Part shown: in pieces, positions 21,208 to 56,684 of the stretch
Layout: each line of letters opens with the position of its first letter
Position numbering within the stretch: position 1 is the first letter of the stretch
NCBI GenBank assembly: GCA_965602015.1
Contig: OZ271918.1
Location: 32,001-96,000, forward strand
DNA length: 64,000 nucleotides
Direction of reading: 5' to 3'
Origin: Salinispira sp.
GTDB taxonomy: Bacteria > Spirochaetota > Spirochaetia > DSM-27196 > Salinispiraceae
Program-made: the position numbers and the translations under genes
Notes under the pieces: model-generated
Database searches by the model: none
What the model was told of the DNA's origin: nothing
Seen by the model: the letters and a program-made list of their open reading frames with translations, nothing else

Positions 21208-21534
21208 GTGATGAAAACTATCAGGATTTTCTATTTCAAAGAAATGACCGACGAACAGCAAAAAGAACTTCTGGATCGCCGGCTCGAGGAAGTTATGGCC
21301 GAAGGCAAGGTCAATCTCCTCACGGTGATCGAAGAGGGCGGTAAAACGAACCATGTTAAAAACCACCAGCAGCGTCAGTTTTCCAAGGCCGCGGGACCAT
21401 ATGTGGAAAAATCCGCGGTGGTGGGAGCCAAGGGAATGATCAAAGTCGCTGTGGCAGGGGTGAAAATGGTTACCGGCCGGGAGATCAGGGCATTCGACAG
21501 CGAGGTCGATGCGGTCAGGTGGCTGGACTCATAA
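21208..21534 (+). CDS. SpoIIAA-like / STAS-SEC14-type small protein
   Basis: KSAVVGAKG...IRAFDSEVDAVRWL C-terminal pattern. Confidence 0.6.
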   Translation: MMKTIRIFYFKEMTDEQQKELLDRRLEEVMAEGKVNLLTVIEEGGKTNHVKNHQQRQFSKAAGPYVEKSAVVGAKGMIKVAVAGVKMVTGREIRAFDSEVDAVRWLDS

Positions 21535-22389
21535 ACATTCGCCGTCTATTGCCGCGAGCCGGTCCTTGAGGTAGTTACTGAAGCTGATTTTCGGCACGCC
21601 CTTGGCGGGCTTCGCCTCGATGCGCAGCTCTTCACCGGTTGCCGGGTGTTTGACGGTTCTCGATTTCTGGGCTTCGCGTATTTTGCGGTAAAACCTTCCG
21701 ATTTTTCCCATGGGCACCGACTCGCCCATGAGCATGCCGGTTTCAACCATGGTGAGGTAGTCATCGACAATGAGCCGGGCCTGGTTTCCCGTCAGGCCGT
21801 GCTTTTTCGCCAGATACCTGGTCATGGACTTCATGGTAAACTGATCGGGAATATTTTCCTGGCCTTCGGACAGATCCCTGTTGAATTTCATAAAGCCGGT
21901 GGTCACATAAATGCTTCCTTCCCGTATGAGCCGGTCCTGCTGATCCTTTTCCAGATCTTCCGGGCAGACCGCCAGACGGTACACCGGACTGGTTGTGCTT
22001 ATTCTCGAGTTAATGAAAACTATGGGGTGGCCGCAGCGCACCTCGCCGGGGAGGGAAATCATCTGGTCCGCAATTATATCCGGAACATCGGTGCGAAGCT
22101 TAATGGCCGAGTATTCGAGCCATTTGCCGGCGGTGTCGTCGTTGTCCGGTCCGACGGCCAGCAGGGAGCCCGAATAGCTCAGGGCCATAAAGCCCCTGCT
22201 GTCTCCGGCGGGAAGCACATCGCAGATTTCCAGCCCGCTTTGCCGTGCGTGGAGCTCGAAGAGGGATTCCTTCCTCTGCCAGACTCCGGCCATCAGTTCC
22301 AGAAAGTCCCTGTCGCCCTGTTTTCCCGCGTCCGCCGCAAGGGCCGTCAACTGCCGCTGTATTTCTCCAGATAGCTTTTCATATGACAT
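21529..22389 (-). CDS. Unnamed ~170-aa domain fused to a C-terminal HU/IHF DNA-binding domain
   Basis: C-terminus MTRYLAKKHGLT..ARLIVD...GESVPMGKIGRF...HPATGEELRIEAK...PKISFSNYLKD is HU-like; N-terminus is homologous to ORF 22537-23061. GGGAGAG RBS before ATG 22389. Confidence 0.8.
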   Translation of the reverse strand: MSYEKLSGEIQRQLTALAADAGKQGDRDFLELMAGVWQRKESLFELHARQSGLEICDVLPAGDSRGFMALSYSGSLLAVGPDNDDTAGKWLEYSAIKLRTDVPDIIADQMISLPGEVRCGHPIVFINSRISTTSPVYRLAVCPEDLEKDQQDRLIREGSIYVTTGFMKFNRDLSEGQENIPDQFTMKSMTRYLAKKHGLTGNQARLIVDDYLTMVETGMLMGESVPMGKIGRFYRKIREAQKSRTVKHPATGEELRIEAKPAKGVPKISFSNYLKDRLAAIDGECL

Positions 22390-22536
22390 ACTATGCTCTC
22401 CCGACACTAACAATAGTTCGAAAACGCAGTGTTTTCAATAATTTTTTCAAAAGATACCGAAAAATATGGAACTTTATGGAAAGGGGCGATAGAATCACCA
22501 TCGCAGCTGCAATCACACGGTATCAGGAGAGAAAAA

Positions 22537-23061
22537 ATGAGTGTACAATTTGACGAGCTTGCCCCGGAAATTCAGAGTCACATCAGGACCCTCGCCAAGC
22601 AAAACGGCGGCGGAGATGAAATGATCGAACGGCTCGCCGACGCCTGGCAGGAAAAGTTTCGGCAGTTCAGCGGGAAAACCGCTGAAGGCAATATGGAGGC
22701 TCTGGATCGCCTGGAGGTGGATGACAGCAGGGGGGTGTTGATGCTTACCTACTCCGGTTCCCTGCTTTCCGTGGGCCCGGACTCCGATGACGGCCGGAAG
22801 GTCGATTACGTCAGCATCGGGCTTCGAAGCGATGTGCCCGAATCTATCAGCGGGGAGGCGGTGAGCTTCGCTGCAAGCCCCGAATGCGGCAGGCCGGTAG
22901 AGTTTACCGCCGGACCTATCAGCAAGAGTTCGCCGATTTTTGCCATGGCTGCCACAGCGGTGGACGCCGGTGAAGAAGAAGCCCTGGAACAGCTCGAAGA
23001 GATGACGAGGATAATCAGCGATGAGTTCGCTGAAATCAATAAAACGATAATTCAGGAGTGA
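22537..23061 (+). CDS. Acidic hypothetical protein; stand-alone paralog of the N-terminal domain of the HU fusion
   Basis: AGGAG RBS; DSRGVLMLTYSGSLLSVGPD..GLRSDVP aligns with DSRGFMALSYSGSLLAVGPD..KLRTDVP. Confidence 0.8.
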   Translation: MSVQFDELAPEIQSHIRTLAKQNGGGDEMIERLADAWQEKFRQFSGKTAEGNMEALDRLEVDDSRGVLMLTYSGSLLSVGPDSDDGRKVDYVSIGLRSDVPESISGEAVSFAASPECGRPVEFTAGPISKSSPIFAMAATAVDAGEEEALEQLEEMTRIISDEFAEINKTIIQE

Positions 23062-23067
23062 TGCGCC

Positions 23068-24081
23068 GTGGAACGAGCCGAATTGAATCAACTGGAGCAG
23101 CAGCTGACGGAACGGGCCCGACTTTCCGGGCTTCCCGACCGGGTTGAGTTGGGCGGGCTGCTGGCCCAGGTGAACGGAATACTCAATTCGGAACCCGAGG
23201 ATCTCCGCCCGGCGGACCGCAGAGGTCTGCCCGGCGGCCTCGTCCTTCTGCCGGTTGCCCAGTATTACCTGGTGGTTCCCGATTTGCACGCCAGGAAGGA
23301 TTTTTTCCTCCAGGTTTTACTGCATCGCGCCGCCGGAGTTAATTCGGTGCTCGCCGACCTTGCGGAGGGCAGGGCGGTTGTGATTTGCGTCGGCGATGCG
23401 TTTCACTCGGAGCGCCGGGCCTTGAAGCGCTGGCAGGCGGCGTTTGGTGAATACATCAACGAGTTCGCCGAGCATAGGCACATGGATGAGGAAATGGCCG
23501 AAAACCTCGGCCTCCTTCAAATGATCGCCATGGTCAAGCGAGCCTTCCCCCGGAGCTTTCATTTCCTGAAGGGTAATCACGAGAACATCGCCAATGAACG
23601 GGGTGAGGGCAACTATCCGTTTATGAAGTTCGTCCGGGAGGGCGACATGGTCAAGCGATGGATGGACATGTTCGCCGGGCCCGATGTGCCCGACCTGATA
23701 TACCGCTGGGAAAAATCCCTGCCGCTTATGGCCGCCGGGGAGGATTTCCTGGTGACCCATGCTGAGCCCGGAAGGGCCCTGGAGAGGAACGAGGTCATAG
23801 ACGCCTATGGGAACCCCGAGGTGATCTACCTTCTCACCTGGGTGGGAAACGACGAAGCCGAACCCGGTTCGGTACGGAAAACCCTGGAAAACATCATCGG
23901 CCGTGGGGCCGACGGGCGGATTTTCGGCGGCCACAGACCGGTGAGCGACCGCTACGATCTGCGGCAGGACGGCCAGTACGTCCAGATCAACACCCCGGAC
24001 AATCATGTGGTCGCCAGATTTTCTACAATGAATACCTTTGATCCGGAGACCCAGATCTACCGGATACTCGGAGGTCAATAA
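23068..24081 (+). CDS. Calcineurin-like metallophosphoesterase
   Basis: VPDLH, VGDAFH, LKGNHEN, VTHAE and GGHRP metal-ligand motifs. Confidence 0.85.
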   Translation: MERAELNQLEQQLTERARLSGLPDRVELGGLLAQVNGILNSEPEDLRPADRRGLPGGLVLLPVAQYYLVVPDLHARKDFFLQVLLHRAAGVNSVLADLAEGRAVVICVGDAFHSERRALKRWQAAFGEYINEFAEHRHMDEEMAENLGLLQMIAMVKRAFPRSFHFLKGNHENIANERGEGNYPFMKFVREGDMVKRWMDMFAGPDVPDLIYRWEKSLPLMAAGEDFLVTHAEPGRALERNEVIDAYGNPEVIYLLTWVGNDEAEPGSVRKTLENIIGRGADGRIFGGHRPVSDRYDLRQDGQYVQINTPDNHVVARFSTMNTFDPETQIYRILGGQ

Positions 24082-25886
24082 TGGCAACGGCTCCGAGCCA
24101 GATAGACAAGTATCCGGTCAAGCAGCAGGTGGCCAGCGGCGGCATGAGCGCCGTGTACCTGGGCAGCCACCCAACCCTCGACAGGCCGGTTATTCTCAAG
24201 AAACTCACCCTCTCGGGAGACAAGTCCATTACCGAACGCTTTCGGCGTGAGGCCAGGCTTCTGATGGATTTCCGGCACGACCACATCGTGGATGTGTTTG
24301 ATCACTTCGTAAAAGGCAGATCGCACTATATCGTCATGGAATATGTGGACGGCATGTCGGTCAAGGAGCTCATCGAGTCCCAGCGCTATCTGGACGCCCC
24401 GGTAGCGGCGTACATCACCCTGATTACCTGCCGGGCCCTGGAGTATGCTCACCGCAAGGGCGTGGTCCATCGGGATATCAAACCGGCGAATGTGCTGTTA
24501 TCCCGGGACGGGGAAATCAAGCTCGCGGACTTCGGCATCGCCAGCGGCGGCGGGGGAGATGAAACCCTCACCAGCGACGGCGCCACCCTCGGCACGCCGG
24601 CCTACATGGCACCCGAGCAGTTCAGCAACTCCCGAACCGTTGACTTCCGCGCCGACCTGTACTCCCTGGGGGTCATGCTCTACGAGATGCTCTGCGGGCA
24701 GAAGCCGTTCCCCGGGGGGTTTACACCGGAAGTAATTCAGGCCATCCAAAAGGGACGCTATATTCGGCCGGGAAAACACAACCCTTCCATTCCCCGGGTG
24801 ATCAAAAAGCTCATACGGCAGCTCATGCTGCCGTCCAAGGACCGGCGCCTGAGCCACATGAAACGGATTCAGGAGCGTCTGGAGCGCTTTCTCAGCGCCT
24901 ACGACGGGGAAGCTGTGGTGAGCAGGCTCGGTGCCCTGGTTCGCAATGAGGAACCGACGGTCCTCGGCAGGCGGCGCCGGCCCCGCCCCCTTCTTCGCTG
25001 GGGAATCGCGGCGGCGGTCCTCCTGCTCGCCGGCCTAATCGGGGGATACGCAGCAATCACCGATGTCCATCGCGTGCTGCTCTTTCCCGGGGAGTACGGC
25101 AGGCTTCGAATAGAGTTTCAGGGAAACCGCGCGCCGGTTAGCAGCATCTTCGTCGATGACGGCCGGGAGATACCCCCGGTGCCGGCGACGGTCCGTTTTA
25201 TTCCCCAGGGCGACTGGCAGGTCTCCCTTCCCCTGGTTCTGCCCGAGGGACAGTACCGCATAAAAACCGAAAGCGGGGACCGGGTGGTGTGGAACAGCAT
25301 TTACCTGCCCTCTGCGGCCCGCAGGAGCGAAGGCAGGAGGGTGTTTATTGCCGCCGAAGAGCCCGTCGCCCGGGAATTAACGGTTCGCACCGAGGCGGCG
25401 GATATAAGCCGGGGCGGCCGGGTTAACGTGGAGGTCATAACCGAGGTGTTGCAGGGCCGAGCCTTTATTCCCATTGATCGGGCTGAATCTCTCATGAGCG
25501 GAGAAGTGCACCATTTTCGCATCCGCGCAGAGGGCTATTTTACCCAGGAGTTTGTGCTGCGCATCGACACCAGACAACGGGATGTGGTGCTGCGGGCCGA
25601 CATGGTGCCCCTGCCCGGTGAGCTCAGGGTCGCCTTTCCCGTGGGGAACCGGGATTTTCTGTTCCGTATCGACGGTGACAGCAGGGCGATGATCGTGGAA
25701 GCCGGCGCAGTCCGCCGAACCGAGCTGAATCTTGAGGCCAGGGACCGATATCCCCTGCTTCCCGGAAACTATGAACTGTTCATTTCCGGAGACGGGTGGC
25801 AGCAAAGCATCCAACTGGAGCTGGCGTCCGGCGAGAACCGGGTTCTTTTCATCAATCCGGCTGCCTCAACGGCTGAGTTGAGATAG
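24081..25886 (+). CDS. Hanks-type Ser/Thr protein kinase with TM helix and extracytoplasmic beta-sandwich region
   Basis: ASGGMSAVY, VILK, HRDIKPAN, DFG, GTPAYMAPE, DLYSLG; TM LLRWGIAAAVLLLAGLIGGYAAI; TAATG coupling to the phosphoesterase. Confidence 0.95.
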   Translation: MATAPSQIDKYPVKQQVASGGMSAVYLGSHPTLDRPVILKKLTLSGDKSITERFRREARLLMDFRHDHIVDVFDHFVKGRSHYIVMEYVDGMSVKELIESQRYLDAPVAAYITLITCRALEYAHRKGVVHRDIKPANVLLSRDGEIKLADFGIASGGGGDETLTSDGATLGTPAYMAPEQFSNSRTVDFRADLYSLGVMLYEMLCGQKPFPGGFTPEVIQAIQKGRYIRPGKHNPSIPRVIKKLIRQLMLPSKDRRLSHMKRIQERLERFLSAYDGEAVVSRLGALVRNEEPTVLGRRRRPRPLLRWGIAAAVLLLAGLIGGYAAITDVHRVLLFPGEYGRLRIEFQGNRAPVSSIFVDDGREIPPVPATVRFIPQGDWQVSLPLVLPEGQYRIKTESGDRVVWNSIYLPSAARRSEGRRVFIAAEEPVARELTVRTEAADISRGGRVNVEVITEVLQGRAFIPIDRAESLMSGEVHHFRIRAEGYFTQEFVLRIDTRQRDVVLRADMVPLPGELRVAFPVGNRDFLFRIDGDSRAMIVEAGAVRRTELNLEARDRYPLLPGNYELFISGDGWQQSIQLELASGENRVLFINPAASTAELR

Positions 25887-25918
25887 GCCAAAGACGAAAA
25901 ACCAATAAGGAATGTGAT

Positions 25919-26812
25919 ATGACCTTAACGATACGAAGATTAATCTATGTTCTTGCAGGGGTCCTGGCGGGAATACTGGCCCTGGGCGCCGTGGAGTCGG
26001 TTTTGCGTTCGGCCATCGGAAATTATGCAGTCTCCACCATTCTCCAGGGAGCGGTGATGGGGGCCTCCTTTGGTCTGGTGTTCGGATTATGCGACGGATT
26101 TTTCTTCTCGTCCTTAAAGCGCCCGGAAGTAGCGGTGAGATTTCCCGCCGCTCTGCTGACCATGGCGGCGGGAACCGGCGGCGCAGCCCTGGCCATTCTC
26201 CTTTCAGCCCAGCTGCTGCTGCTTTTTACCGGGCTTGGCAGCTCGGGGTTTCGCAATACTCCGCTGATTTTCGCCCAGATTCGGGGGTTCGCCTGGATGA
26301 TTCCCGGCGGGCTCATCGGCGCCGCCCAGGGTTTTATCCGGCGCAGTCCCGCCCGGGCTGCCGGAGGGGCTTTGGGCGGCATGGCCGGGGCTTTTCTCGG
26401 CGGGGCGGTTATGGAGCTGGCGGGAATCCTGATGCCGGCAAATATCTGGCTGAGGGCAGCGGGATTCGTCCTCATGGGGGTCTCACTGGGGTTCGCCCTT
26501 GGCTGGTTCGAAGCCCGGTTTGCCTACGGAAGGCTCAAAGTACTCAGCGGAGCGGCTAAAAATCGGGACCTGCTGCTGGTCGACCGCAGGCTCAGCCTCG
26601 GCAGCGGCAAGGGCGATCAATTGGCATTTTCCCGCTACGATGACCTGCTCCCCAGGCATGCCATCCTGCACCGCCAGGGCGACGACGTATTTATTGAAAA
26701 ACAGTCGGGCCCGGTTTCGCTGAATGTCAGGGAAATCGACCAACGCCATCTGCTTCGTTACGGCGACGTCCTTGAAGCCGGCGGCCTTCGGCTGCTGTAT
26801 CTCCCCCGTTAA
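25919..26812 (+). CDS. Gly-rich multi-TM membrane protein with C-terminal FHA-fold domain
   Basis: About 6 Gly-rich TM helices, then GRLKVLSG...LSLGS...RHAIL...LRYGDVLEAG. Confidence 0.75.
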   Translation: MTLTIRRLIYVLAGVLAGILALGAVESVLRSAIGNYAVSTILQGAVMGASFGLVFGLCDGFFFSSLKRPEVAVRFPAALLTMAAGTGGAALAILLSAQLLLLFTGLGSSGFRNTPLIFAQIRGFAWMIPGGLIGAAQGFIRRSPARAAGGALGGMAGAFLGGAVMELAGILMPANIWLRAAGFVLMGVSLGFALGWFEARFAYGRLKVLSGAAKNRDLLLVDRRLSLGSGKGDQLAFSRYDDLLPRHAILHRQGDDVFIEKQSGPVSLNVREIDQRHLLRYGDVLEAGGLRLLYLPR

Positions 26813-26833
26813 GGCAAGAATCCGGAGGATTAT

Positions 26834-28306
26834 ATGAAGCGAATAATGCAAACAAGTACACGGCGTCGGGTGCGCCAGCTTTCCACAATGCTTTTTGTCT
26901 GGGCTTGCGGCATCCTTTTCAGTCCGGGCGTATTTGCCGATGACTGGGAGATAACCCAGGTCGACAGTTCATCCCTTCTCACCGCGGGAAGCATAAGGGT
27001 GTATCTGAGGTCGCAGAATCAATCGGGTGAAACTCCGGCGCAGAACGGCGCCCAGGGGGCAGAGGATTCGGAAAGCCGCGGCGCAGCTCCTTCGGTTCGT
27101 GATTTTCGAGTCCGGGACCGCGACGCCGGCCCCCTTGAAGTGCTTTCCGCGGAGAGCGGGGTGTTGCGGGAAGAGGGAATATCGTTTTTGATGCTTCTGG
27201 ATAACTCGGGTTCCATGTACGACGAACAGTTCAACGGGCGGCGGAGGATTGACGAAGCCGTCGACGCCATCAGGGATTTTACCGGACTCACGGCCGCAAG
27301 CGGGGACCGGATGGGCATGGCCCTGTTCGACACAGGTCTTACACCGGTAGCCCTGCCCGGCGACCGTCACCGTGATATTTTGCGCACCCTGGAAACCCTC
27401 AGACGGCCTGAGCGGCAGGATGCCTATACCGAGCTCTATAATGCCCTGCTGGACAGCGCGGACGACATGGCCGATCTGACGGGACGGCGGGCCATCATCC
27501 TTTTGTCCGACGGCAGGAACCTGCCGTATTTGCTGTCCGAAGCTGAGCCCAATCCCACATGGGGCGAGCGTTTGCCCCTGGCCGGCGATGTTTCCCGGGC
27601 GCTTCTGCAGGCGGGGGTCACCCTGTATGCGGTTAATTTTTCCGACGATGAGGATCCGGGGCTGGCGCAGATTGCATCGGCCTCCGGAGGCGCGGTGTAC
27701 CGGGCGCGGTCGGGCAGCGAGCTGGCCCGGGTCTATGAAAATATCCGGAACGACATTCTCAACGAGCTTCGCCTGGAGATCCTGGCGCCGGCAATAGACC
27801 GCAGCGACCGCCAACTGATAATCGGATACGACGGCGGAGAGATTCGCGCAGACTACTACATTCCGCGAATTTTCGCTCCGGGCCGCGGCGAGGAGCCGAC
27901 GGCCTGGCCGCTTATTATCCTTTTTCTCGCCATCGCCGCGGGGGGAACCGCAATCCTGTTCCTGTTCCCCTTTGAGGGGCCGGCGAAGGCTGCCCAGCTT
28001 CGCCAGGTGGACAGCCGGCTCACCGCGGTGTTGCGCAATGACGTCACCTCCATCGGCTCAGATCCCGCCGCCGGACTGACCCTGGCGGGAAATCCCGCAG
28101 TGGAGGCCGAGCATGCCACGGTGGTCAGGGATGACCGGGGAACCTACCGCCTCGAGTCGGGAAAAATCGTCATGGTAAACAACCAGCCGGTTACCAAGAC
28201 CCGGCTTCGTCCCGGGGATGTCATTCGAATCGAGGGAACCACCCTGATTTTTGATGAGCCCGAATCCCGGCCTCCGCGCAAGACAAAGAGCGGCAAATCG
28301 GAGTAG
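26834..28306 (+). CDS. Exported vWA domain - TM - FHA-fold protein
   Basis: Signal peptide; MIDAS LLDNSGSM, YTELY, LLSDG; TM PLIILFLAIAAGGTAILFLF; C-terminal SIGS...EHATV...VNNQPV..RLRPGDVIRI. Confidence 0.85.
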   Translation: MKRIMQTSTRRRVRQLSTMLFVWACGILFSPGVFADDWEITQVDSSSLLTAGSIRVYLRSQNQSGETPAQNGAQGAEDSESRGAAPSVRDFRVRDRDAGPLEVLSAESGVLREEGISFLMLLDNSGSMYDEQFNGRRRIDEAVDAIRDFTGLTAASGDRMGMALFDTGLTPVALPGDRHRDILRTLETLRRPERQDAYTELYNALLDSADDMADLTGRRAIILLSDGRNLPYLLSEAEPNPTWGERLPLAGDVSRALLQAGVTLYAVNFSDDEDPGLAQIASASGGAVYRARSGSELARVYENIRNDILNELRLEILAPAIDRSDRQLIIGYDGGEIRADYYIPRIFAPGRGEEPTAWPLIILFLAIAAGGTAILFLFPFEGPAKAAQLRQVDSRLTAVLRNDVTSIGSDPAAGLTLAGNPAVEAEHATVVRDDRGTYRLESGKIVMVNNQPVTKTRLRPGDVIRIEGTTLIFDEPESRPPRKTKSGKSE

Positions 28307-28339
28307 ACTTGCCGGGAATACGCGAACCGGGAGTGGTCC

Positions 28340-28975
28340 ATGGCAGAAGGTTTTATCGAAAAACGCCGGGAAGAAGTGATCGATGTGCTTACCGATGCCT
28401 TCGCCCGGGATCTGATCGATACCGAGGAATACGAGCGGCGGGTGGGTAAGGCTCACGAGCTCAGCAGCATTCCCGAGCTAAACGCCCTGGCGGCGGACCT
28501 CCGTCCCTTGTTTAACGAGGACGCAAAGGCCTTGAGCCTCTACCCAGCTGCGGGAGATCTCTACCTCAAGACCTATTTCGCCAGCCAGCACTACGACGGC
28601 AACTGGCTTACCAACGAGAATGTTGAGCTTAGGGCCATAATGGGCTCCATGACCTGCGATTTCCGGCGGCCGGTTCTGGGGCCCCGGACAACGGTAAACC
28701 TGCGGGTTATTATGGGCGACGTGAAAATCATCATACCCCGGGGCTTGAGAATCAGCGTGGAAGTCACGCCGATTCTCGGTGACGTGACCAGGCAGCGGGG
28801 GGACAACCGCTTTGTGCGGCAGGTGAAGGGCATCATCAGCAGTTTTCTCGGCGGCGAAGAATCCCGGGAGCTCATTAACCCCAACTCTCATCCGGCGGCT
28901 GAAATTGTTATAACCGGCAGCATCTTTATGGGCAGCCTGAAAATTATTGAGAAGGATGAATCCCTCTTTTCCTGA
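28340..28975 (+). CDS. DUF1707 (SHOCT-like) plus LiaF/DUF2154-like protein
   Basis: REEVIDVLTDAFARDLIDTEEYERRV..A...ELNALAADL N-terminus; repeated xIMGS/xIMGD beta-strand motifs. Confidence 0.7.
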   Translation: MAEGFIEKRREEVIDVLTDAFARDLIDTEEYERRVGKAHELSSIPELNALAADLRPLFNEDAKALSLYPAAGDLYLKTYFASQHYDGNWLTNENVELRAIMGSMTCDFRRPVLGPRTTVNLRVIMGDVKIIIPRGLRISVEVTPILGDVTRQRGDNRFVRQVKGIISSFLGGEESRELINPNSHPAAEIVITGSIFMGSLKIIEKDESLFS

Positions 28976-29202: not shown

Positions 29203-30465
29203 TTACTCCTGTAATTTGATAAATCCCAACTCGAGACCGATATACTCCTGGGTTTTTGTGCCCTCGGGGAACAGGCCTTCTTCCCGGAAGCCGTCTTCCA
29301 GTCCGTAGACTATCTGGGTGTCGTCGCCGAAGTGGTAGAACAAGGTGCATGATATTCTCAGGCATTCGCGGTACAGACGGCGGACCTTTTTGAGTTTTTC
29401 CCTGTCGCTGAGGTCGTAGTCTCCAAGCACCGAGTGAATTTCGTCTATTGCGGCGGAAGCCTTTTCGACGGCGTCAGGGGTTACCACGACTTCGTGCCAG
29501 CCGGCCTTTATCGGGCGGGTGGTAATTTCTCCCTTCCGTTCCATTGAACGCATTCTCAAATAGAGCTGTCTGCCGGCCTGCACCAGGAAACAGCCAGGGG
29601 GTACCCGGACTTCAAGGCGTTCGCCGTTTTCCGTGTATACAAAAAGGCCCGAGTGGGTGCCCTGGGCATGAATAGCGAAGACATCGATGTCCTGGTGCAG
29701 GGCAGCCTGGACGGTTCCCGGTTTTCGGTCTTCCCAGTAGCTGGCATAGGTAGGGGCGATTTTGTGATGTCCGTCATTCATCAGGGATGTAAAATAGTCT
29801 TCCCTGAGCCCCAGCCCCTTGGCGAGCATTTGGGAAACCCGGGTCACCGGCTCGAGCATCATAATGCCGAACTCGTTCATGATTTCCCGCCAGCTATCTC
29901 TGAGCTTAGCCGATAGCTGAGCGGGAATGATGTTCCGCTCATCGGCGACGACGCTTGTTTTGCCGTCGGCTTGGAGAACCCCGACCCGTTCCCGGGGTTT
30001 TCTTCCGGTACGGGTTATCAGGTGATCCATGAAGCGGCCTTTGTGGTCCGGGTAATCGCTTCCGGGAATGGTGAAGGGCAGGTTGCCTTCGCTGAGCCGG
30101 TCGACGAATTTTCGGCAGGCGGCGCTGCTGTCGTGCTGGGAACACAGGGCGACCTCTTCGCCGATGGGGGTCGGGCCGTACTGGTAGCCCAAATCCTTGC
30201 GGAGGTCGTCGTCGGGGATTTCTATGCGCACATCTCCTCCCCTAATCTGGACTGCGGAGCAGTAGTAATCCTGCACTGCCTTGAGAAAGCGCGTTCGCAC
30301 CTTTTTGTCGAAGGCTTGGCTCTTTACCAGAGCCAGACCGTATTTATGAAGGCAGTCGCTGAGCAGTTCGGCATCATGCGGATCCTTGGAGTCCAGGTCG
30401 ATGGGTTCCATAAAATCCCGGGTGGATCGGATATCCGGATTGAACTCGCCGGTTTTATAACTCAT
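29203..30465 (-). CDS. 2-oxoglutarate/Fe(II)-dependent oxygenase (IPNS-like fold)
   Basis: HQD (HxD), distal His in GWHEVVVT, RxS in LRISCTLF; VPPGCFLVQAGRQL. Confidence 0.75.
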   Translation of the reverse strand: MSYKTGEFNPDIRSTRDFMEPIDLDSKDPHDAELLSDCLHKYGLALVKSQAFDKKVRTRFLKAVQDYYCSAVQIRGGDVRIEIPDDDLRKDLGYQYGPTPIGEEVALCSQHDSSAACRKFVDRLSEGNLPFTIPGSDYPDHKGRFMDHLITRTGRKPRERVGVLQADGKTSVVADERNIIPAQLSAKLRDSWREIMNEFGIMMLEPVTRVSQMLAKGLGLREDYFTSLMNDGHHKIAPTYASYWEDRKPGTVQAALHQDIDVFAIHAQGTHSGLFVYTENGERLEVRVPPGCFLVQAGRQLYLRMRSMERKGEITTRPIKAGWHEVVVTPDAVEKASAAIDEIHSVLGDYDLSDREKLKKVRRLYRECLRISCTLFYHFGDDTQIVYGLEDGFREEGLFPEGTKTQEYIGLELGFIKLQE

Positions 30466-35126: not shown

Positions 35127-35972
35127 GTGGATAACTTCAGAATCAGCAAAAAACCCTATTACCTGCCGATCAAGGACGAGGTGGAAACCTTTGAAAAAGC
35201 CTGGAGCGAGCGCATTCCACTCCTTCTCAAGGGGCCGACGGGCTGCGGAAAAACCCGTTTTGTGGAGTTCATGGCCTGGAAGCTGGGGCAGAAGTACAAT
35301 CCCGAGGGTGAGAACAGCAAGGCGGGACAGCAGGGCATCGGTTCGCTCTACACCGTCAGTTGCCACGAAGATCTGACCGCCCGGGACATTACCGGGCGGT
35401 ACATTATGAAGGGGGGAGAGGCCGTTTGGGTCGACGGTCCGGGCACCCGCGCGGTTCGCCAGGGAGCGATTCTCTACCTGGACGAAGTGGTTGAAGCCCG
35501 AAAGGACGTCACGGTAGTCATACATCCGCTCACGGACTACCGGCGCATCCTCCCCATCGAGACCCTGGGTACCCAGTTAAAGGCCCCTCCTTCGTTTATG
35601 GTGGTGGTTTCCTATAATCCCGGCTATCAAAGCATCCGCAAAAATCTCAAGCCCTCGACCAAGCAGCGCTTTATTGCCCTTGATTTTGACTATCCCCCAC
35701 CCGAAAAAGAGGCAAAGATAGTGGAGACCGAGGGAGGAATAGGCGCCGCCGTGGCCGAAAAGCTGGTGCTATTAGCCAGCGATATCAGGAATATTTCCAA
35801 CATCGATCTTGAAGAGGGGGTAAGCACCCGCAGCCTGGTGCACGCGGGACGGCTTATCAAACGGGGAATGCTTGCCCGGCGCGCATGCTCCCTGGCCATC
35901 GCTCAGGCGGTGTCCGACGAGCGGGAAGAGATCGACGCTATCGAGATGATCATCGACAAGATCTTCCGATGA
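35127..35972 (+). CDS. CbbQ/NirQ/NorQ family MoxR AAA+ ATPase
   Basis: LKGPTGCGKTRFVE, CHEDLTA, YLDEVVEARKD, HPLTDYRR, SYNPGYQ, LKPSTKQRF, STRSLV. Confidence 0.92.
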   Translation: MDNFRISKKPYYLPIKDEVETFEKAWSERIPLLLKGPTGCGKTRFVEFMAWKLGQKYNPEGENSKAGQQGIGSLYTVSCHEDLTARDITGRYIMKGGEAVWVDGPGTRAVRQGAILYLDEVVEARKDVTVVIHPLTDYRRILPIETLGTQLKAPPSFMVVVSYNPGYQSIRKNLKPSTKQRFIALDFDYPPPEKEAKIVETEGGIGAAVAEKLVLLASDIRNISNIDLEEGVSTRSLVHAGRLIKRGMLARRACSLAIAQAVSDEREEIDAIEMIIDKIFR

Positions 35973-38566
35973 AGTATGCCGAGTACTATCGGGAAACCCT
36001 CAGGAAACTCAGCGAAACCAGCCCGGAACTGGTAAGACATTATGAGGAGATAAGCGCTCTACTCACCTCGCTGCAACCCCCCGATGAACAGCTAATGGCT
36101 GCCGCCGCCCGTCTTACATCGGCGTCCCGATACCAGTACCTGGCGCCGGGTTGGATTGCCATGGCCTGGCGCCGAAGAGAACTGACGCCGGTGTCCCGCA
36201 TTTGCGCGGCCCTTTCGGGAAGCCGAAGCGCCGGCGCCTTTATCAACGCCTATCCGGTGACCGGGGTTCCGGCGGCAATGCTGGAATCCGGGCTTGCGGC
36301 GCTGGACAGCCTCGGACGGGAGAAGGGGGTGACGGTTCATGCGGTGATTCCCTTCATAATGGCCCAAACGGACTCGCGTCGAGCCGTTGAGCTCCTTGAA
36401 GCCTTCGTTTCCATTCTGCGGGCGTCTCCCGAGGCAATGATGGAAGTGTATAACCTGATGCACAGCCGTCTGCGGAAAATCAGGCCTGAGCTCATGGAGC
36501 GCTGGCTGTACCGGGGAGTCGACCTGATCACCTCAGGGAGAATTGAAGAAGGCGTGGATTTCCTCCGGCTTCGAAGCCCCGACAGCCGATGGATGCTGGG
36601 AATAAAATCGGTGGTGCTGGGGGACATCCGGCGCTCCTTGAGGATATACGCGACAAGCGTCGCGGGACGCAGCATGTCCATCCATTCCCTCGAGATCAGC
36701 GCGGCGGGCATGCAGATTCCCTACAGCGATGGTCGGTCGATATTTCTCCCGGAAAGCATCAGCCTGTACCGGGACCGGCGGATTAACGAGCGGGTCTATT
36801 CCGCACTGGCGGCGATGCAGGCTGCCAGCATTTCCATGGGCAGTTTTGCCCTGAGGCTCGACGCCCTGGAGTTCATAAACGACATCAGGGAGCGCTACGC
36901 CACTGTTCTTCCGGACATAATGGATAATATACGCCGGCAGTATGCAAAAAGGGCAGAGACAATCCGGGAGCGGCCCAGCGGCGAGGTTGATGTCATTTAC
37001 CCCGGCGGCAGGACGGTGACGGTCCTCGAAACCCCTCTGGAGAAATTTTTCTACATGTTTCCCGCCCCGGACCTTGCCAGAGAGCTGTTCCGTGTCGCGG
37101 AAAACCGGCGGATCCGCTGGTCACTTTCCAGCCGCTACCCCGGACTCGATGAGGATTTTTCTCTGATGGCAAAGGGCTTTCCCCGGCTTTGGGACCCCGT
37201 GGCCGCGGCAAAGGCCAAAAGGGAGGAGCAGTTCCACTTCATCCTCGCGGGAATCGTGCAGCTGTCGGTGCAGCAGGCCTTTGACAGCTCGCTTTCCGGC
37301 GCCGTCCAGACCACCATGCTCCACATCCGGGAGGCCCTCCATCTGGTTGAGCGGCCCGGTTCCACGGTTGCCGACAGCGCCCGGGCCTGCTTCTTGATGT
37401 TCAACCAGCTCTACGAGCGCTACCCGGTCATCACCTATTGCGAGAGGCGGGATATCCGCGAGTCATTTGACTCTCCAGTTCACCCCGGCTATGCCCCTGA
37501 AATCGTATTCGACGTGAGTCCCGACCTTATTCCCGAGACGGCTCCCGGCAGACTGGAAACCGATACCAAGCAGGAAGGGGCAGCGGTAGACCTCACATCC
37601 ATGGCCGTGGAAAACCGTCGCCGCCAGGACGCCCGAAGCAGGCTATTGTCCGAGGACATCCGGTTGTACCGCTACCGGGAGTATCACAGCGGCCGCGGCG
37701 AGTACCTTCCGGGTCACTGCCTGTTGTATGAGCGGGAGCTTCTTCCCGGAAACCCCGCTGAGATTCAGATGCTCGCCCGGCGGTATGAGCAACTTCAAAA
37801 ACGCATACAGAAGCGATTTCTTATGCTCCAGCCCGAGAATCTGGAAATCAGCCGGCGCTGGGAAGCCGGCGATGAGCTACACATGGGCGACACCTTTGAT
37901 TTTCAGACCGATATCAGCCGGGGCGAGTCCCGAGATCAGAAAATATTTATCCGCCGCAGGAGGAATATCCGCGACATTGCCGTTGCCCTTCTCATCGATA
38001 CCAGCAGCTCCACCAGTGCCGAGCTGGACGGCATGTCGGTGCTCGACATCGAAAAGGCCGCCGTCATCCTCTTGGGGAACGCCCTGTGGTCCATCGGGGA
38101 CGTGTTCGGTATTTACGCATTCTATTCCCGTGGACGGAGGGAAGTGAACTTTAACGTGGTCAAGGATTTCGAGGAGACCTGGCACGATCCGGTGCGCTCC
38201 CGCCTGGCGAGCGTGGTGCCCTCCGATTCAAACCGGGACGGCTGCGCAATCCGGCATGCCGCGGCGAAACTGGCCGAACGCCGGGAAAAAACCCGGCTGC
38301 TTCTGATGCTCAGCGACGGCATCCCCGCCGATCCGGGTTACGGGGGCAGGGACGGCGATAAAACCTCATCCTATGCGATAGAAGACACCAGAAAGGCGGT
38401 TTTGGAAGCCCGGCAGGCGGGGCTTCACAGTTACTGCCTCACCATCGACCGGGAAGCCAGGGAGTATATTCCCCGGCTCTACGGCGACTTCCGCTACTCA
38501 ATCCTTAACGATGTTGAGCAGCTGCCCGAACGGCTGAGCAATCTGTATTTGAGAATTACCCACTAG
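35969..38566 (+). CDS. CbbO/NorD-type vWA adaptor protein
   Basis: C-terminal vWA with LIDTSSST, NRDGCAIRHA, LSDG, IEDTRKAVLEAR, CLTIDREAREY; ATGA coupling to the ATPase. Confidence 0.88.
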   Translation: MKYAEYYRETLRKLSETSPELVRHYEEISALLTSLQPPDEQLMAAAARLTSASRYQYLAPGWIAMAWRRRELTPVSRICAALSGSRSAGAFINAYPVTGVPAAMLESGLAALDSLGREKGVTVHAVIPFIMAQTDSRRAVELLEAFVSILRASPEAMMEVYNLMHSRLRKIRPELMERWLYRGVDLITSGRIEEGVDFLRLRSPDSRWMLGIKSVVLGDIRRSLRIYATSVAGRSMSIHSLEISAAGMQIPYSDGRSIFLPESISLYRDRRINERVYSALAAMQAASISMGSFALRLDALEFINDIRERYATVLPDIMDNIRRQYAKRAETIRERPSGEVDVIYPGGRTVTVLETPLEKFFYMFPAPDLARELFRVAENRRIRWSLSSRYPGLDEDFSLMAKGFPRLWDPVAAAKAKREEQFHFILAGIVQLSVQQAFDSSLSGAVQTTMLHIREALHLVERPGSTVADSARACFLMFNQLYERYPVITYCERRDIRESFDSPVHPGYAPEIVFDVSPDLIPETAPGRLETDTKQEGAAVDLTSMAVENRRRQDARSRLLSEDIRLYRYREYHSGRGEYLPGHCLLYERELLPGNPAEIQMLARRYEQLQKRIQKRFLMLQPENLEISRRWEAGDELHMGDTFDFQTDISRGESRDQKIFIRRRRNIRDIAVALLIDTSSSTSAELDGMSVLDIEKAAVILLGNALWSIGDVFGIYAFYSRGRREVNFNVVKDFEETWHDPVRSRLASVVPSDSNRDGCAIRHAAAKLAERREKTRLLLMLSDGIPADPGYGGRDGDKTSSYAIEDTRKAVLEARQAGLHSYCLTIDREAREYIPRLYGDFRYSILNDVEQLPERLSNLYLRITH

Positions 38567-45686: not shown

Positions 45687-47162
45687 TCAGAAGAGCTGAT
45701 GGTCTTCCTCCTCCGGCCCGTCGAGAATTTCCAGGGTCTCGCCGCTTAGCGCGAGTTTGGCGCTCTCGACATAGATGCCGAAAATGTCCTGATCCATTCC
45801 CCTGATATCCACATAGCGCAGCACAATGCGGCGGTCGATTGACAGCTCCACGTACCCGCCGAACACCACCAGTTCGATTGAGAGGTTCGGCTGCTTCGAG
45901 CCGGGAAAGCGGTTGCTTTGAATGATGTTGTAATCAAAGGCGTTCTCAATATCGCCGTCGTGCCGCTCGCTCCAGAATCTCCCCTGGGCTATGCCGTTGA
46001 TGAGGTCGAGACTGATGTAGTGACCGTTTCCCTGGGGATCCTGTCGAAACACCAGGCCGGTCTTTCCAAGTCCTTCCAAATGCAGTGTGGCTGAAAAGCG
46101 GAAATCCCGGCAGCGCCGGTCAAACGCGAAGATTTCATAGCCGCTGACCGACCAGAGATGCAGGGCTTCATCATCCTTGTTTATGCCCGCGCTGGGATTG
46201 TTCAGCACCATCCGCAGGGGCCTAAGGGTTTCCCCCGGCACTTTTTCGCTCACCTTCTTGTCGAAGCCCTCGTAGCTTTTTACAAATAGCTGACCGTCTT
46301 CCTGCACGTCCAACCGGGTCGGGGGAGGAAGTATGGCCATCCGGCTCGCCGACGCGTCGTGAGAAAAGAAATTCCACAGCAGCCAGCCCTTGTCGTCCTT
46401 GGTGAGCCGGGATGCATAGTTGCCCCTGGGCAGCAGGACATTGTCCGCATAAGCCTGGTAGACGCCGAAAATCTCCGGGCTGTGCCAGTAGTGGATTTTG
46501 ATGTCCTCCCGGATATTGCCCAGGAGGTAGTAGTTCTCGCCGATGTGAAAGAGGCCGGGTACTTCAATATCGTCGTACATTCGAGGGTAGAATAATGGTT
46601 CCCTCCAGCGGAACTTCCCGGGTTCGTACTCCTGGGCGACCCCGACGCAACCCCGGCGAATAACCGGACCGTCGGGAACCCGAGCGTTCACCAGCATCAG
46701 GCGGGTATCCCCTTCCCGGTAAAAAAACGGATCCCGGCAGCTTACCCAGTGCCGTCCCTGGTCGATGGAGTCTTCATAATGTGGGCCTTCTATCGACAGG
46801 GGAAAGTTTTCATCTTTCACCTTGCGCCAACTGTACAAATCATCAGAGCGGGCCAGGCCGATGCGCTGAACCTTGCCGCTCTCCTTTCGGGACAGCCCGG
46901 TGTACAGCATGCGGAAGGCGCTGGTGCCGTCGGGGTCGGGGCTGACGTGCATGGTCCACAACATATCATCATCCCATTCTCCCGGCTCTCCGATAAACAA
47001 CGGATTCTGCACCCGCCGCCAGAGAAAGCCGTCCTTGCTCACCGCATGGGCGATATAGTCGTGATTGGGCAATACAAGATGAAACAGGTGAAACTCGCCT
47101 TTATGGACAATGACATCCACGTCCCCGAGTTCGGAGCGGGTAAATCCTCTACCGGTGTACAC
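45687..47162 (-). CDS. Glycoside hydrolase, clan J / GH32-like (beta-propeller plus beta-sandwich), cytoplasmic
   Basis: GDVDV..HLFHL, HAVSKDG..W, LWTMHV, CRDPF, DDIEVP; no signal peptide. Confidence 0.7.
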   Translation of the reverse strand: MYTGRGFTRSELGDVDVIVHKGEFHLFHLVLPNHDYIAHAVSKDGFLWRRVQNPLFIGEPGEWDDDMLWTMHVSPDPDGTSAFRMLYTGLSRKESGKVQRIGLARSDDLYSWRKVKDENFPLSIEGPHYEDSIDQGRHWVSCRDPFFYREGDTRLMLVNARVPDGPVIRRGCVGVAQEYEPGKFRWREPLFYPRMYDDIEVPGLFHIGENYYLLGNIREDIKIHYWHSPEIFGVYQAYADNVLLPRGNYASRLTKDDKGWLLWNFFSHDASASRMAILPPPTRLDVQEDGQLFVKSYEGFDKKVSEKVPGETLRPLRMVLNNPSAGINKDDEALHLWSVSGYEIFAFDRRCRDFRFSATLHLEGLGKTGLVFRQDPQGNGHYISLDLINGIAQGRFWSERHDGDIENAFDYNIIQSNRFPGSKQPNLSIELVVFGGYVELSIDRRIVLRYVDIRGMDQDIFGIYVESAKLALSGETLEILDGPEEEDHQLF

Positions 47163-47245
47163 ACAGGCCTCCTAAGCTATGGCGTATGTGTACAAGGTAC
47201 AAAGGCCTGTGGGTAATTTCCAGCGGCAATGGACATAATTACCGA

Positions 47246-50155
47246 TCAATCCACCAGTTTGATAATTTTCACCCCGTTAGTCTTGTCGGCAATAATCGCA
47301 TACCCCCCGTGAACCCGAAGCTCGATTCCGTCGAAATCGGTCCAGGTCAAGGCCTGATCCTGGACCGGTTTGGTGGCCGCAGAATGATCAAGAACTTCAA
47401 AATCGAATTCCTCATTTATGGAGAAGATGTATATGCCCTGGGCTTCGATATCGATGCCGTAGTGAATCCCGTAATGATCAGGAGGGGTCCCGGCTCCTTC
47501 CAGATATGAAGAAGAATCGGGGTCCACATCCCTCAGGTACATGGTGCCGCCCCCGGGGCCGAAGCTGTCCTGGAGAAGCATCATATCGCCCTGGAGATAC
47601 AGGTCGTGGATTTCCGCTCCCATATTCGAGATCTCGCCGACCTTGATAGGCGTCGCCGGGTCTTCAATGTTGTAGATAATGAGATCTGAGGGCCGGAAGT
47701 ATGCGGCGTCGGCGATGTACAGCAGATTATCCTTGATTGCAAAGTCATTGGCGGAAAACTGTTTGTCGTTGAATCCCAGAAAAACCGGGTTCAGGGGGTC
47801 CGCGATGTTGAACGTGGTAAGCCCGTCGTTGTTGATGGTAAAAAGCACCTCTCCCCGGATCTCGGTCCTAGCAAAACCATAGCCCTGCTCGGGCGAGCTT
47901 GTCATCGCCAGGGAATGAGGCTGGCTGATGTCGACGATACGCAGAACCGGTCCGCCGTCGGATACCAAAAGGCTATTTCCCGCCTTGGTGAGGAAGAGTT
48001 CGAATTTTGTGCCGGTGATTTCCAGATCAACGCTGTGAAGCAAAACCGGTGAAACCGGATCGGTAATGTCGTAGGATGCAAGGGAGTAATCATCGGTGCT
48101 GCCCCGGGCGACGTATAATAGACTGCCCTTTCTCGCTGTCGCGAGGGCATTGATGCCGGTAATTTCACCGTCCACCTGCAGGGCTGGCAACGCCGAGTTG
48201 CTCACGGTCTGAAGTCCCATGGGGCCGGAGGCGATAAATATTGACCTGCTGTTTACCTCGAGGTCGCGGCTGGGGCCGGGGGTGTCCCAGCCTCCGCCGC
48301 TGACAAAGGCCGGGTTCGCCGGGTCGGTAATATCAACTGTCACGTAACCCCAACCGTCTTTTATGTATACCGTGTTTCCGTAGGCACGGGGGTTGCTTGG
48401 ACTCCCGTCGACATGGCCGGGAGTCTGACCGATAATCGCCGGACCCACTGACAGGGGATCTATTACGAGGAAATCAAAAAAGGGCAATTCGGTTATTGCC
48501 GCAGCCGAGGCGGTGGCGAAAAGATATTGATCGTCATCGCTGTAGGCAAGCCGGTCGGGAAAATCCCCGTCGACTATGACCGAGGTGTTCGTCGTATAGC
48601 CCGGTGCACGGGGATCGTCGGGATGATAAACATAGCAGATAAGTACGTGTCCCCGGGAATCGAAGGTTGTGTCGTCCTGGCCGAAGAGTCCCGCGTGGAA
48701 AAACGTGTACTGCGGATCCGTCGTAGCGTTGGGTACCGCAATCGATATGGCCTGGGACGTTGTTCCCGAAGGAGCCTCAGGGGTCAGGCTGTCGTGGTAA
48801 ACCGGGGCGGCGGGGTTGCGGATATCGATGAAGTGCACCACGCCGCCTGTATCCAGAATAAACAGGTACCAGTCGTTTATCTCACAACCCGAGGGGTCGA
48901 TTGCCGGATCGATGTTCATGCTCGCGAGAAACAGTGGCGCCGCCGGATCGGCGATGTCGTAGCTGCTGATAGCGGAGTTCTCTGAAATCACAAAAAGATT
49001 ATTGCTCCGTATTTTTATATCGTGTACGTCCGGGAATGAAATCCTGCTGAGCTCCTGCAGGGAATCCGGACGGTTGACATCCATCAGCACGATTTCCCCT
49101 TCGGACAGCACTCCGGCCAGTATGCCTTCGGATTCCTCAATGTGAACCAGCTGGCCGCCGAGGGGGTAGCCGGCGATCTGGTCAAAGGAACCCGCTTCGG
49201 CAGGGAACACATCCGGGGTACCCCAGGCCGAACCGCTGAGTATGGCCCCTTCGAACACCGGGCGTATCATATAAAAATAGTCCGCCCCTTCGAAGACCCC
49301 TTCGTCCAGGAAGTGGCTGTCACCGACTTCGGTGTATTTCGTGTAGTTATCTTCGTTTCCGACACTGCGCCACACCTCGTACTCCGGGGCTCCGGGAATA
49401 TCAGTCCATTCGAGGTAAATCTGCCGGTACCCCGCTTCGATACGGGGTATTAGAGTCAAGGGTGACAGGGGAAGGGCACTGCGGTAATCCGAGATAAGAC
49501 TGCTTCCGTCAGACATTTCGCTGATGAGCTGGAAAACATGGGCTGATCCGTTTTCCAGATCGGGAATTGTGATTTCGATTTCGTTCTGATCACCTCCGGC
49601 AATTTCCTGCTCAATGCCGTACACCGCGGTGGGAAGGGCGCCGTCGGTGGTATAGCGAAGCAGGTATCGCTGTGCGTCGGATATGCCTGTCCAGCTGACC
49701 TGGGCGCTGCGGTTGCCCGAACTGACTCTGAAGGACGGCAGGACGGTTCCCGGGTCTTCGAGAACGATTTCCCGTTCGCTGCTGTTCTCGTTCCAGTCGG
49801 TCACACGAACCGTTACCCGCACATCCCCGCTGAAGCCGACGGTTTCGAAACTAAAGTCGAAGCCGCCGCTTCCGCCTAAGCTCACGGGGCTTTCCTCAAT
49901 GAGGGTCTGCACAGAATTCGATACGCTAAAGGTCAGGGACGAAATTGTTTCCGAGACGTTTGCTTCTCCGGTGATTCTTCCCGTCACCGTTACACTCTCC
50001 CGGTACTCAGTGCGGTCCTCAGGCAAGAGGATCTCCAGCACGGGAATCACGTCGTCTTTTAACCTGGTCAGCAGTTCGCTCTCCAGCGGCTGGAGACAGG
50101 AGGCCAGAAAGATGGTGCAAAAACCCAGACAGATTACTCGCAGCAGGTTTTTCAT
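47246..50155 (-). CDS. Large lipoprotein: Ig-like and FN3-like domains plus LVIVD-repeat beta-propeller
   Basis: Lipobox FLASC; LEWTDIPGAPEYEVWRS FN3 pattern; repeated xxDITDP / DISQP / NIADP / NIEDP motifs. Confidence 0.8.
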   Translation of the reverse strand: MKNLLRVICLGFCTIFLASCLQPLESELLTRLKDDVIPVLEILLPEDRTEYRESVTVTGRITGEANVSETISSLTFSVSNSVQTLIEESPVSLGGSGGFDFSFETVGFSGDVRVTVRVTDWNENSSEREIVLEDPGTVLPSFRVSSGNRSAQVSWTGISDAQRYLLRYTTDGALPTAVYGIEQEIAGGDQNEIEITIPDLENGSAHVFQLISEMSDGSSLISDYRSALPLSPLTLIPRIEAGYRQIYLEWTDIPGAPEYEVWRSVGNEDNYTKYTEVGDSHFLDEGVFEGADYFYMIRPVFEGAILSGSAWGTPDVFPAEAGSFDQIAGYPLGGQLVHIEESEGILAGVLSEGEIVLMDVNRPDSLQELSRISFPDVHDIKIRSNNLFVISENSAISSYDIADPAAPLFLASMNIDPAIDPSGCEINDWYLFILDTGGVVHFIDIRNPAAPVYHDSLTPEAPSGTTSQAISIAVPNATTDPQYTFFHAGLFGQDDTTFDSRGHVLICYVYHPDDPRAPGYTTNTSVIVDGDFPDRLAYSDDDQYLFATASAAAITELPFFDFLVIDPLSVGPAIIGQTPGHVDGSPSNPRAYGNTVYIKDGWGYVTVDITDPANPAFVSGGGWDTPGPSRDLEVNSRSIFIASGPMGLQTVSNSALPALQVDGEITGINALATARKGSLLYVARGSTDDYSLASYDITDPVSPVLLHSVDLEITGTKFELFLTKAGNSLLVSDGGPVLRIVDISQPHSLAMTSSPEQGYGFARTEIRGEVLFTINNDGLTTFNIADPLNPVFLGFNDKQFSANDFAIKDNLLYIADAAYFRPSDLIIYNIEDPATPIKVGEISNMGAEIHDLYLQGDMMLLQDSFGPGGGTMYLRDVDPDSSSYLEGAGTPPDHYGIHYGIDIEAQGIYIFSINEEFDFEVLDHSAATKPVQDQALTWTDFDGIELRVHGGYAIIADKTNGVKIIKLVD

Positions 50156-50156
50156 G

Positions 50157-52304: not shown

Positions 52305-52411
52305 GGTTGTCCCCCATCTGTAATTCTATCCCGATGGAATTGCTCAGACAATGCCGATGGGGGGAATGTGTTTGGTATTGCCGGTGTTTACTCAGGAGTA
52401 CCGAGCCTAAA

Positions 52412-52446
52412 GACACACAGCCCGGCTTTCGGCCGGGCTCTCTGTC
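52412..52446 (-). terminator. Probable terminator after the PKD/PPC lipoprotein genes
   Basis: agcccggc-tttcg-gccgggct stem extended by gaca/tgtc, 20 bp past the stop at 52466; short T-run. Confidence 0.5.
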
Positions 52447-52465
52447 AAAACAGGGGATTTTGATA

Positions 52466-56540: not shown

Positions 56541-56684
56541 TGAGGTCTCCTGATTTCTTATTTGCAAAGTGGTACTGAACTGTAGAATATCATGAAATTG
56601 ACAATATAACTACGATAGAGTCTATTTTATTATTATAAAATAAAATTATAATAGATATTTTGGAAAAACGTCAAAAAGAAAAGT

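Follow-up and report, generated by a model that had tools for sequence, protein, structure and literature searches.

Here, we describe a predicted membrane Ser/Thr signalling operon in a 64,000-nucleotide stretch of Salinispira sp. DNA (contig OZ271918.1, positions 32,001 to 96,000 of the forward strand; hereafter, the window), which is a conserved and apparently undescribed variant of kinase/phosphatase/FHA/vWA signalling that includes a new domain family. The operon encodes a stand-alone copy of this domain, which we call X, a calcineurin-like phosphoesterase, a Hanks-type kinase and two membrane proteins with FHA domains, one of which also carries a vWA domain. A divergent neighbouring gene encodes a second X domain fused to an HU-type domain (X-HU). 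From the predicted domains, an output at the nucleoid is plausible, and we give slightly less than even chances to a reading in which the operon passes a signal from the envelope on to the chromosome by way of X-HU.

Gene layout and conservation of the operon

All seven genes were found at positions 21529..28975 of the window, in the arrangement given by a preliminary description of this DNA, namely six co-oriented genes with a divergent X-HU gene 147 bp away:

21529..22389, minus strand: X-HU fusion, 286 aa; X domain at residues 1-~172 and HU/IHF domain (PF00216) at 186-278
22390..22536, no strand: divergent intergenic region, 147 bp between the two X-gene start codons, AT-richer (GC 0.39)
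22537..23061, plus strand: stand-alone X domain, 174 aa, acidic (net charge -19), of no known family
23068..24081, plus strand: calcineurin-like phosphoesterase, 337 aa (Metallophos, E-value (E) 2e-5)
24081..25886, plus strand: Hanks-type Ser/Thr kinase (E 1e-51) with one hydrophobic/transmembrane (TM) segment at 308-326 and a C-terminal ectodomain
25919..26812, plus strand: TM-FHA, multi-TM and Gly-rich, its C-terminal FHA domain degenerate; four segments above the hydropathy threshold
26834..28306, plus strand: vWA-FHA, with signal/anchor, vWA domain, TM segment and degenerate FHA domain; metal ion-dependent adhesion site (MIDAS) DNSGSM intact; hydrophobic segments at 16-34 and 360-378
28340..28975, plus strand: DUF1707/LiaF-like gene; outside the conserved set, its place beside the operon being shared with a single same-genus genome

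The gaps along the six co-oriented genes are 6, -1, 32, 21 and 33 bp. The region at 22390..22536 presumably holds back-to-back promoters; in the divergent intergenic regions, TG-x-TAxAxT-like and TGGAAT stretches are visible, as judged by eye only, with no test for an operator motif.

Conservation was assessed in one draw of 401 Spirochaetota genomes and in a set of 80 named loci, which were kept from 103 obtained by searching genome contigs with a 10-sequence X alignment (the window X alone gave none). Spirochaetota are named by the source labels of the homologues and by 79 of the 80 locus titles, the remaining one reading 'uncultured bacterium'. The order X, phosphoesterase, kinase, TM-FHA, vWA is retained in 52 of the 59 loci that have room for it (at least 5.6 kb downstream of X), the other seven being accounted for by absence of the phosphoesterase alone (five), phosphoesterase and kinase only (one) and a second X copy (one). 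X occurs in 45 of 61 close relatives and in 54 of the 401 phylum genomes, where TM-FHA occurs in 48 and the phosphoesterase in 84; all 48 genomes with TM-FHA have X, and 45 of them have the phosphoesterase. The neighbourhood thus proved to be conserved, a point that the preliminary description had set for checking. Since the gene order recurs across Spirochaetota, the arrangement is not due to chance, and we regard it as virtually certain that the operon is real.

The last co-oriented gene did not hold its place as the sixth part. The DUF1707/LiaF-like gene has a match in only one of 168 related loci, in a same-genus genome, and two paralogues elsewhere in the source genome; comparison with the same 168 loci also led us to reject an upstream SpoIIAA-like gene and a NorQ/NorD-like pair. 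The pair, a CbbQ/NirQ/NorQ-type AAA+ ATPase with an 893-aa NorD-like vWA partner, lies 6 kb from the operon (window 35127-38566, plus strand). The 55 genes found downstream of the vWA gene fall into 39 families; therefore, the operon is not accompanied by additional components of a machine. X-HU itself was found in 54 of the 80 loci, and a divergent X-domain gene lies upstream in 43 of the 67 with room for one. In loci L050, L051, L057, L061, L062 and L079, X-HU is convergent at the far end of the operon, after the vWA gene, indicating that its link with the operon survives rearrangement.

Part of the operon is distributed more widely, together with a small canonical FHA protein whose gene in the source genome is 1.2 Mb away (C1:1239967-1240332, minus strand). 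Of the 29 phosphoesterase-positive genomes of family f12, 11 were selected because they are without X, and all 11 of their loci consist of small FHA, phosphoesterase and kinase genes with no other operon gene. Three further families contributed nine loci, of which six have the phosphoesterase ahead of the kinase and three have it on its own. The kinase, the phosphoesterase and the small FHA therefore form a wider core. The system has two layers, this core and a layer of X, X-HU, TM-FHA and vWA-FHA that is present or absent together. A single-query search of plasmid and phage collections did not find X.

The X domain and its fusions

X shares 37% identity over 145 aa with the N-terminal part of X-HU (E 2e-31), and the HU domain of the latter matches PF00216 at E 7e-11 (42.6 bits against a cut-off of 22.4), which recovers both halves of the fusion first proposed. 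X has no match in Pfam, NCBIfam, PHROGs, PADLOC or the PDB sequences. A search of 1.84 billion representatives with an X profile returned just 207 proteins at E <= 0.001, and by this measure X appears to be a small, closed family of ~175 aa. The AlphaFold model of X (pLDDT 88) has two N-terminal helices, a seven-strand beta core and one C-terminal helix. A Foldseek search with this model against PDB and viral structures gave no match, in keeping with its initial description as an unknown domain. In the VIA fold search, the best Z values for the whole model were 4.4-4.5, below the trusted level. The beta core searched by itself came closest to the N-terminal domain of NucS/EndoMS (2vld_B), which we take to be PH-like, at a Z of 5.7 that is also below the trusted level (root-mean-square deviation 4.3, 82 of 98 residues, 6% identity), with DM10 and Sm/Lsm ranking after it. 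The absence of a match does not show that the fold is new, and an ESM Atlas search with X, which came back blank, is not counted as evidence.

Across 118 X and 78 X-HU sequences, residues K40, S73, S75, R87, S93, R97 and S132 (numbering of the window protein) are invariant, and position 71 is always Thr or Ser (T71 in the window protein). Most of the invariant residues are also retained in divergent X proteins and in the X-Y fusions described below. The paralogues differ in charge, with a median net charge of -20 for free X, -5 for the X part of X-HU and +8 for its HU part. Near the C-terminus of X, Thr170 is Thr in 100 of the 118 X sequences and is a candidate phosphosite. In X-HU, the arm motif [NH]PxTG, with its intercalating proline, is present in 59 of 79 orthologues, and the protein probably binds DNA. 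Residue 172 of the window X-HU is Asp, at a position that is Thr or Ser (an NRT/S motif) in 94% of X-HU proteins; the Asp is possibly a natural phosphomimic.

X is reused in four fusions, with HU, with a domain that we call Y, with vWA-TM and, once, with DUF2442. Domain Y spans ~120 aa, is helical by pattern, contains a conserved YKWxESEKKxFDIGL motif and has no Pfam match; the X-Y fusion comprises 11 aligned proteins (P0147 and ten relatives) and occurs in 4 of 401 genomes, and none of its four loci (L049 and L161-L163 among the loci noted) adjoins kinase genes. In protein P0154, X replaces the FHA domain behind vWA-TM. A search for longer proteins that contain X returned two matches (an HU fusion and a 341-aa protein that has no annotation) and missed P0154, so that it is weak evidence on fusions. 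Two further loci place DNA-binding domains near X genes. In L043 (10104-12026), the gene immediately after a divergent X encodes a 372-aa protein whose N-terminus is an HU domain, so that the X-HU link appears in split form. In L056 (5509-6096, minus strand), in one genome, a gene for an FHA-LuxR helix-turn-helix fusion, another phospho-readable DNA-binding protein, lies ~0.9 kb from X-HU.

The kinase, phosphoesterase, FHA and vWA proteins

The kinase retains its catalytic motifs (HRDxKPxN in 105 of 115 sequences, DFG in 111 of 115). Its 270-aa ectodomain, which follows the TM segment at 308-326, has no match in Pfam or the PDB and no conserved Cys. The source genome has two Hanks kinases. In a fast maximum-likelihood tree (62 kinase domains, 22 family labels), the kinases follow their host families (22 changes against 47.5 in shuffled labels), with family f1 not forming one clade, a pattern that fits mostly vertical descent. 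In locus L152 (7133-9723, minus strand), a second, inverted phosphoesterase-kinase pair directly follows the operon, either a duplication or an assembly artefact.

The phosphoesterase residues D72, H74, D110, N170, H171, H231 and H289 are invariant in 26 of 26 sequences; we take these seven positions to be the six PPP metal ligands and the catalytic His. All PDB matches of the phosphoesterase profile are PPP enzymes (BSU1, PP1, PP5 and PP2A), in weak alignments (E >= 0.004) that cover ~30 residues, and the orthologue Spith_1457 of Spirochaeta thermophila DSM 6578 bears a source label beginning 'Serine/threonine spec...'. Judged from these sequence features, the enzyme is likely a PPP-type Ser/Thr protein phosphatase. 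It adjoins the kinase in relatives too, in agreement with the kinase-phosphoesterase pairing originally noted, and it is very probably the phosphatase cognate to the kinase. PP2C_2 (PF13672) has no match in the source genome.

The Arg/Ser/Asn triad of FHA domains binds phosphothreonine. The accessible part of PMC5007285 gives R164, S178 and N200 as residues that a Sulfolobus FHA protein requires for binding to the kinase. The FHA domain of TM-FHA scores under the Pfam cut-off, and its family profile matches GarA/OdhI at E 1e-9. The triad is present in 52 of 52 small FHAs and in none of the 85 TM-FHAs or 80 vWA-FHAs; Gly-Arg is retained in 14 of the 85 TM-FHAs despite the loss of the triad. A role of the two membrane FHA proteins as phosphothreonine readers is therefore not supported. 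The small FHA, which has an HDTI motif at its N-terminus in the source genome and adjoins the operon in 26 of the 80 loci, is likely the missing member of the system and, by its motifs, would be a better candidate reader and substrate than the membrane FHAs. The phosphoesterase is found in 49 of the 55 genomes with the Thr-bearing class of small FHA, a co-occurrence that is partly circular, because the 14 seed sequences came from such loci.

The MIDAS motif DxSxS of the vWA domain is intact in 92 of 92 sequences. TM-FHA and vWA-FHA share a single reading frame in 8 of the 80 loci, joined through a signal-like hydrophobic stretch; these fusions suggest that the two proteins sit in one membrane complex. 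We consider it highly likely that X works with TM-FHA and vWA.

Proposed mechanism, alternatives and relation to known systems

From the observed gene presence, order, co-occurrence and the presence or loss of motifs, we infer the interactions, substrate, signal and DNA target of the following scheme. The older and wider layer would consist of the kinase, the phosphatase and the small canonical FHA protein, which would read phosphothreonine and whose N-terminal D/E-x-T-I Thr may act as a GarA/OdhI-like switch. In the second layer, the periplasmic vWA would share a single inner-membrane complex with the multi-TM protein, next to the kinase. The membrane FHA domains, unable to recognise phosphothreonine by the canonical route, would offer X a docking surface that does not depend on phosphorylation. 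X would then serve as an adaptor, with its invariant Lys/Arg/Ser/Thr set (K40, T71, S73, S75, R87, Y91, R97 and S132) contacting a phosphorylated ligand or a partner; through kinase activity, X and X-HU would come free or change partners, and HU-type DNA binding would change as a result. That the kinase controls X-HU is, in our estimate, not quite an even bet. A stronger version, in which X is a new phospho-ligand-binding fold and an X/X-HU partner switch lets an envelope-sensing vWA-kinase complex directly remodel the nucleoid, convergently with the archaeal Arn network described below, we consider somewhat unlikely. Of the envelope-to-nucleoid system outlined in the preliminary description, the conserved cluster stands, the DUF1707 gene as a part and the membrane FHAs as phosphothreonine readers are not supported, and the small FHA, encoded outside the window, had been missed. 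The present scheme also departs from that outline in treating X as an adaptor, where it had been simply a substrate of the kinase, and the membrane FHAs as scaffolds.

Several observations weigh against the relay from envelope to chromosome. The genomes are kin and not independent, the 80 named loci overlap partly with the genomes of the phylum draw, and no statistical test is claimed. X is missing from 34 of the 84 phosphatase-bearing genomes, which still have the kinase and the phosphatase; therefore, the kinase has work independent of X. Six X genomes without TM-FHA hold only divergent X or X-Y, beside unrelated genes; X-HU lies apart from the operon in several genomes (L023, L030, L038 and L055); and the adjacent X paralogue can reflect an old tandem duplication. 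PPP Ser/Thr phosphatases carry a GDxVDRG motif, and the phosphoesterase has GDxxHxE (26 of 26) without its Asp-Arg; the invariant R47, R76 and R121 may substitute. A strict need for the phosphatase is countered by genomes G190 and G229, which have the operon with neither an operon-type phosphatase nor a PP2C_2 match, PP2C_2 being present in one of the three operon-bearing genomes that lack the operon-type enzyme. The replacement of FHA by X in P0154 is a single sequence, and the D/E-x-T-I-type Thr motif occurs in only 30 of the 52 small FHAs, most of the others forming a class without it.

The second layer might instead be a kinase-regulated structural complex of the envelope, serving adhesion, shape, membrane remodelling or chromosome tethering, with X as a scaffold and X-HU tying DNA to the membrane. 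HU binds DNA with little sequence specificity, and the degenerate FHAs, the Gly-rich multi-TM protein, the intact vWA MIDAS and the TM-FHA/vWA fusions would all suit such a structure; vWA-kinase operons have also been tied to membrane remodelling in FtsZl1 systems, according to the available text of PMC2875224. The source genome, however, has no tubulin-like or type VI secretion system (T6SS) sheath gene, the MoxR-type ATPase pair of the window has no homologue in the 168 loci, and the many families found after the vWA gene leave no machine parts to accompany the operon, so that we judge a structural complex unlikely. It is distinctly unlikely that free X is an acidic DNA mimic that antagonises cellular HU or the HU domain of X-HU, with this titration tuned by phosphorylation. 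The charge difference between free X and the two parts of X-HU fits such a role, as does the divergent X directly upstream of the HU-domain gene in L043, and DMP12 (PMC3643605) and DMP19 (PMC5722371) are reportedly acidic DNA mimics that bind HU; against this, the invariant residues of X are basic and hydroxyl, not acidic, and X is fused to the non-HU domains Y and DUF2442 as well.

The kinase core and X-HU could also be functionally separate, their proximity being due only to duplication of X. The unlinked X-HU genes, the divergent X and X-Y genes away from kinase genes and the 34 genomes with kinase and phosphatase but no X point in this direction, but adjacency is retained across many families at ~35% identity and in two arrangements, and both paralogues share one set of invariant X residues, which makes this explanation very unlikely. 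Highly improbable, finally, is a nucleotide-signalling or anti-phage system in which X would be the receptor for a nucleotide messenger that the phosphoesterase breaks down. The Lys/Arg/Ser/Thr-rich invariant set of X could hold a nucleotide phosphate, and calcineurin-like phosphodiesterases, FHA and vWA domains are described in conflict systems in the accessible part of PMC7159879. The operon is, however, near single-copy and fixed in order, with no variable effector; its loci contain no cyclase; its kinase tree tracks host families; the one plasmid and phage query did not find X; PADLOC matches only the generic kinase domain; and the PDB matches of the phosphoesterase are protein phosphatases.

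The closest analogue of the operon appears to be the Arn network of Sulfolobus, which regulates the archaellum and comprises the FHA protein ArnA, the vWA protein ArnB, the kinases ArnC and ArnD, the phosphatase PP2A and the DNA-binding AbfR1, with phosphorylation-dependent DNA binding as its output (accessible parts of PMC7472852 and PMC5007285). As far as these sources go, both systems combine, by class, FHA, vWA, a Hanks kinase and a PP2A/PPP-type phosphatase. They differ in that the ArnA FHA binds phosphorylated ArnB and both act on a promoter, whereas the operon-linked FHAs are without the phosphothreonine triad, which only the separate small FHA has; moreover, the vWA protein is predicted to be periplasmic, the genes lie together in a single operon, and nothing in Arn corresponds to X or X-HU. 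The small FHA resembles the actinobacterial GarA/OdhI of the PknG/PknB pathway in its small size, its single FHA domain and, in 30 of 52 sequences, a Thr shortly before that domain. In GarA, this is a conserved Thr within an ETTS motif (available text of PMC12321487), whereas the small FHA has one Thr and no ETTS, and is encoded with a PPP-like phosphatase and a kinase.

Other kinase systems were compared and set aside. As described in the accessible parts of the sources, the TerY-P triad combines the TerY vWA, a PP2C and a kinase-zinc ribbon protein (PMC10542128), kinase, PP2C and vWA genes are neighbours in GAP1-N2-associated loci (PMC7159879), and both share adjoining vWA, phosphatase and Ser/Thr kinase genes with the operon. 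The operon differs from both in its calcineurin-like phosphatase in place of PP2C, its membrane kinase with an ectodomain, its exported vWA and its lack of restriction or GTPase genes. It is not a TerY-P member, having a Metallophos phosphatase, a kinase without the C-terminal zinc ribbon/OB fold and a vWA that is not stand-alone. The T6SS PpkA/PppA/Fha1 pathway, like the operon, has a membrane kinase, a phosphatase, an FHA scaffold and periplasmic sensing parts, and is defined by T6SS core genes in the genome; VipB (PF05943), the only T6SS family searched, has no match in the source genome (99.67% complete; E. coli control positive). A vWA-MoxR ternary system was rejected as no ATPase gene lies between X and vWA in the loci and the NorQ/NorD-like pair matches 0 of 168 loci, and an FtsZl1/vWA/kinase operon, as described in the accessible part of PMC2875224, as tubulin-like PF13809 has no match in the source genome (control positive, 3 of 14). 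In PADLOC, the operon was matched only through its generic kinase domain. No description of the operon was found in the literature searched, which included spirochaete-directed searches and had most subscription papers and supplements, with their possible neighbourhood tables, outside its scope; the accessible parts of PMC5898192 and bioRxiv 10.64898/2026.10.19.760177 contain nothing on it. The architecture is thus unlike any named system in our database, membership and literature comparisons, as had first been suspected.

Elsewhere in the window, a 2-oxoglutarate-Fe(II) oxygenase-like gene (29203-30465, minus strand) has weak Pfam matches and 0 homologues in the 168 related loci. Further on (45687-56567, minus strand) lies a series of large exported-type genes with a GH32-like propeller, an LVIVD repeat, transglutaminase-like/TPR and PPC domains and a five-PKD protein.

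In the literature searched, Ser/Thr signalling in free-living spirochaetes is essentially unstudied, and the operon provides a complete parts list in a cultured non-pathogen, Spirochaeta thermophila DSM 6578 (phosphatase orthologue Spith_1457). The operon pairs a bacterial Hanks kinase with a phosphatase that is PPP-like and not of the PP2C type. Should X-HU be the output, it would be a nucleoid protein that carries an input domain for signalling within the same chain. If the partner switch between X and X-HU is also true, the operon would link a Hanks kinase and a PPP phosphatase to an HU-type output of their own, a cascade that arose convergently with the Arn network of archaea.

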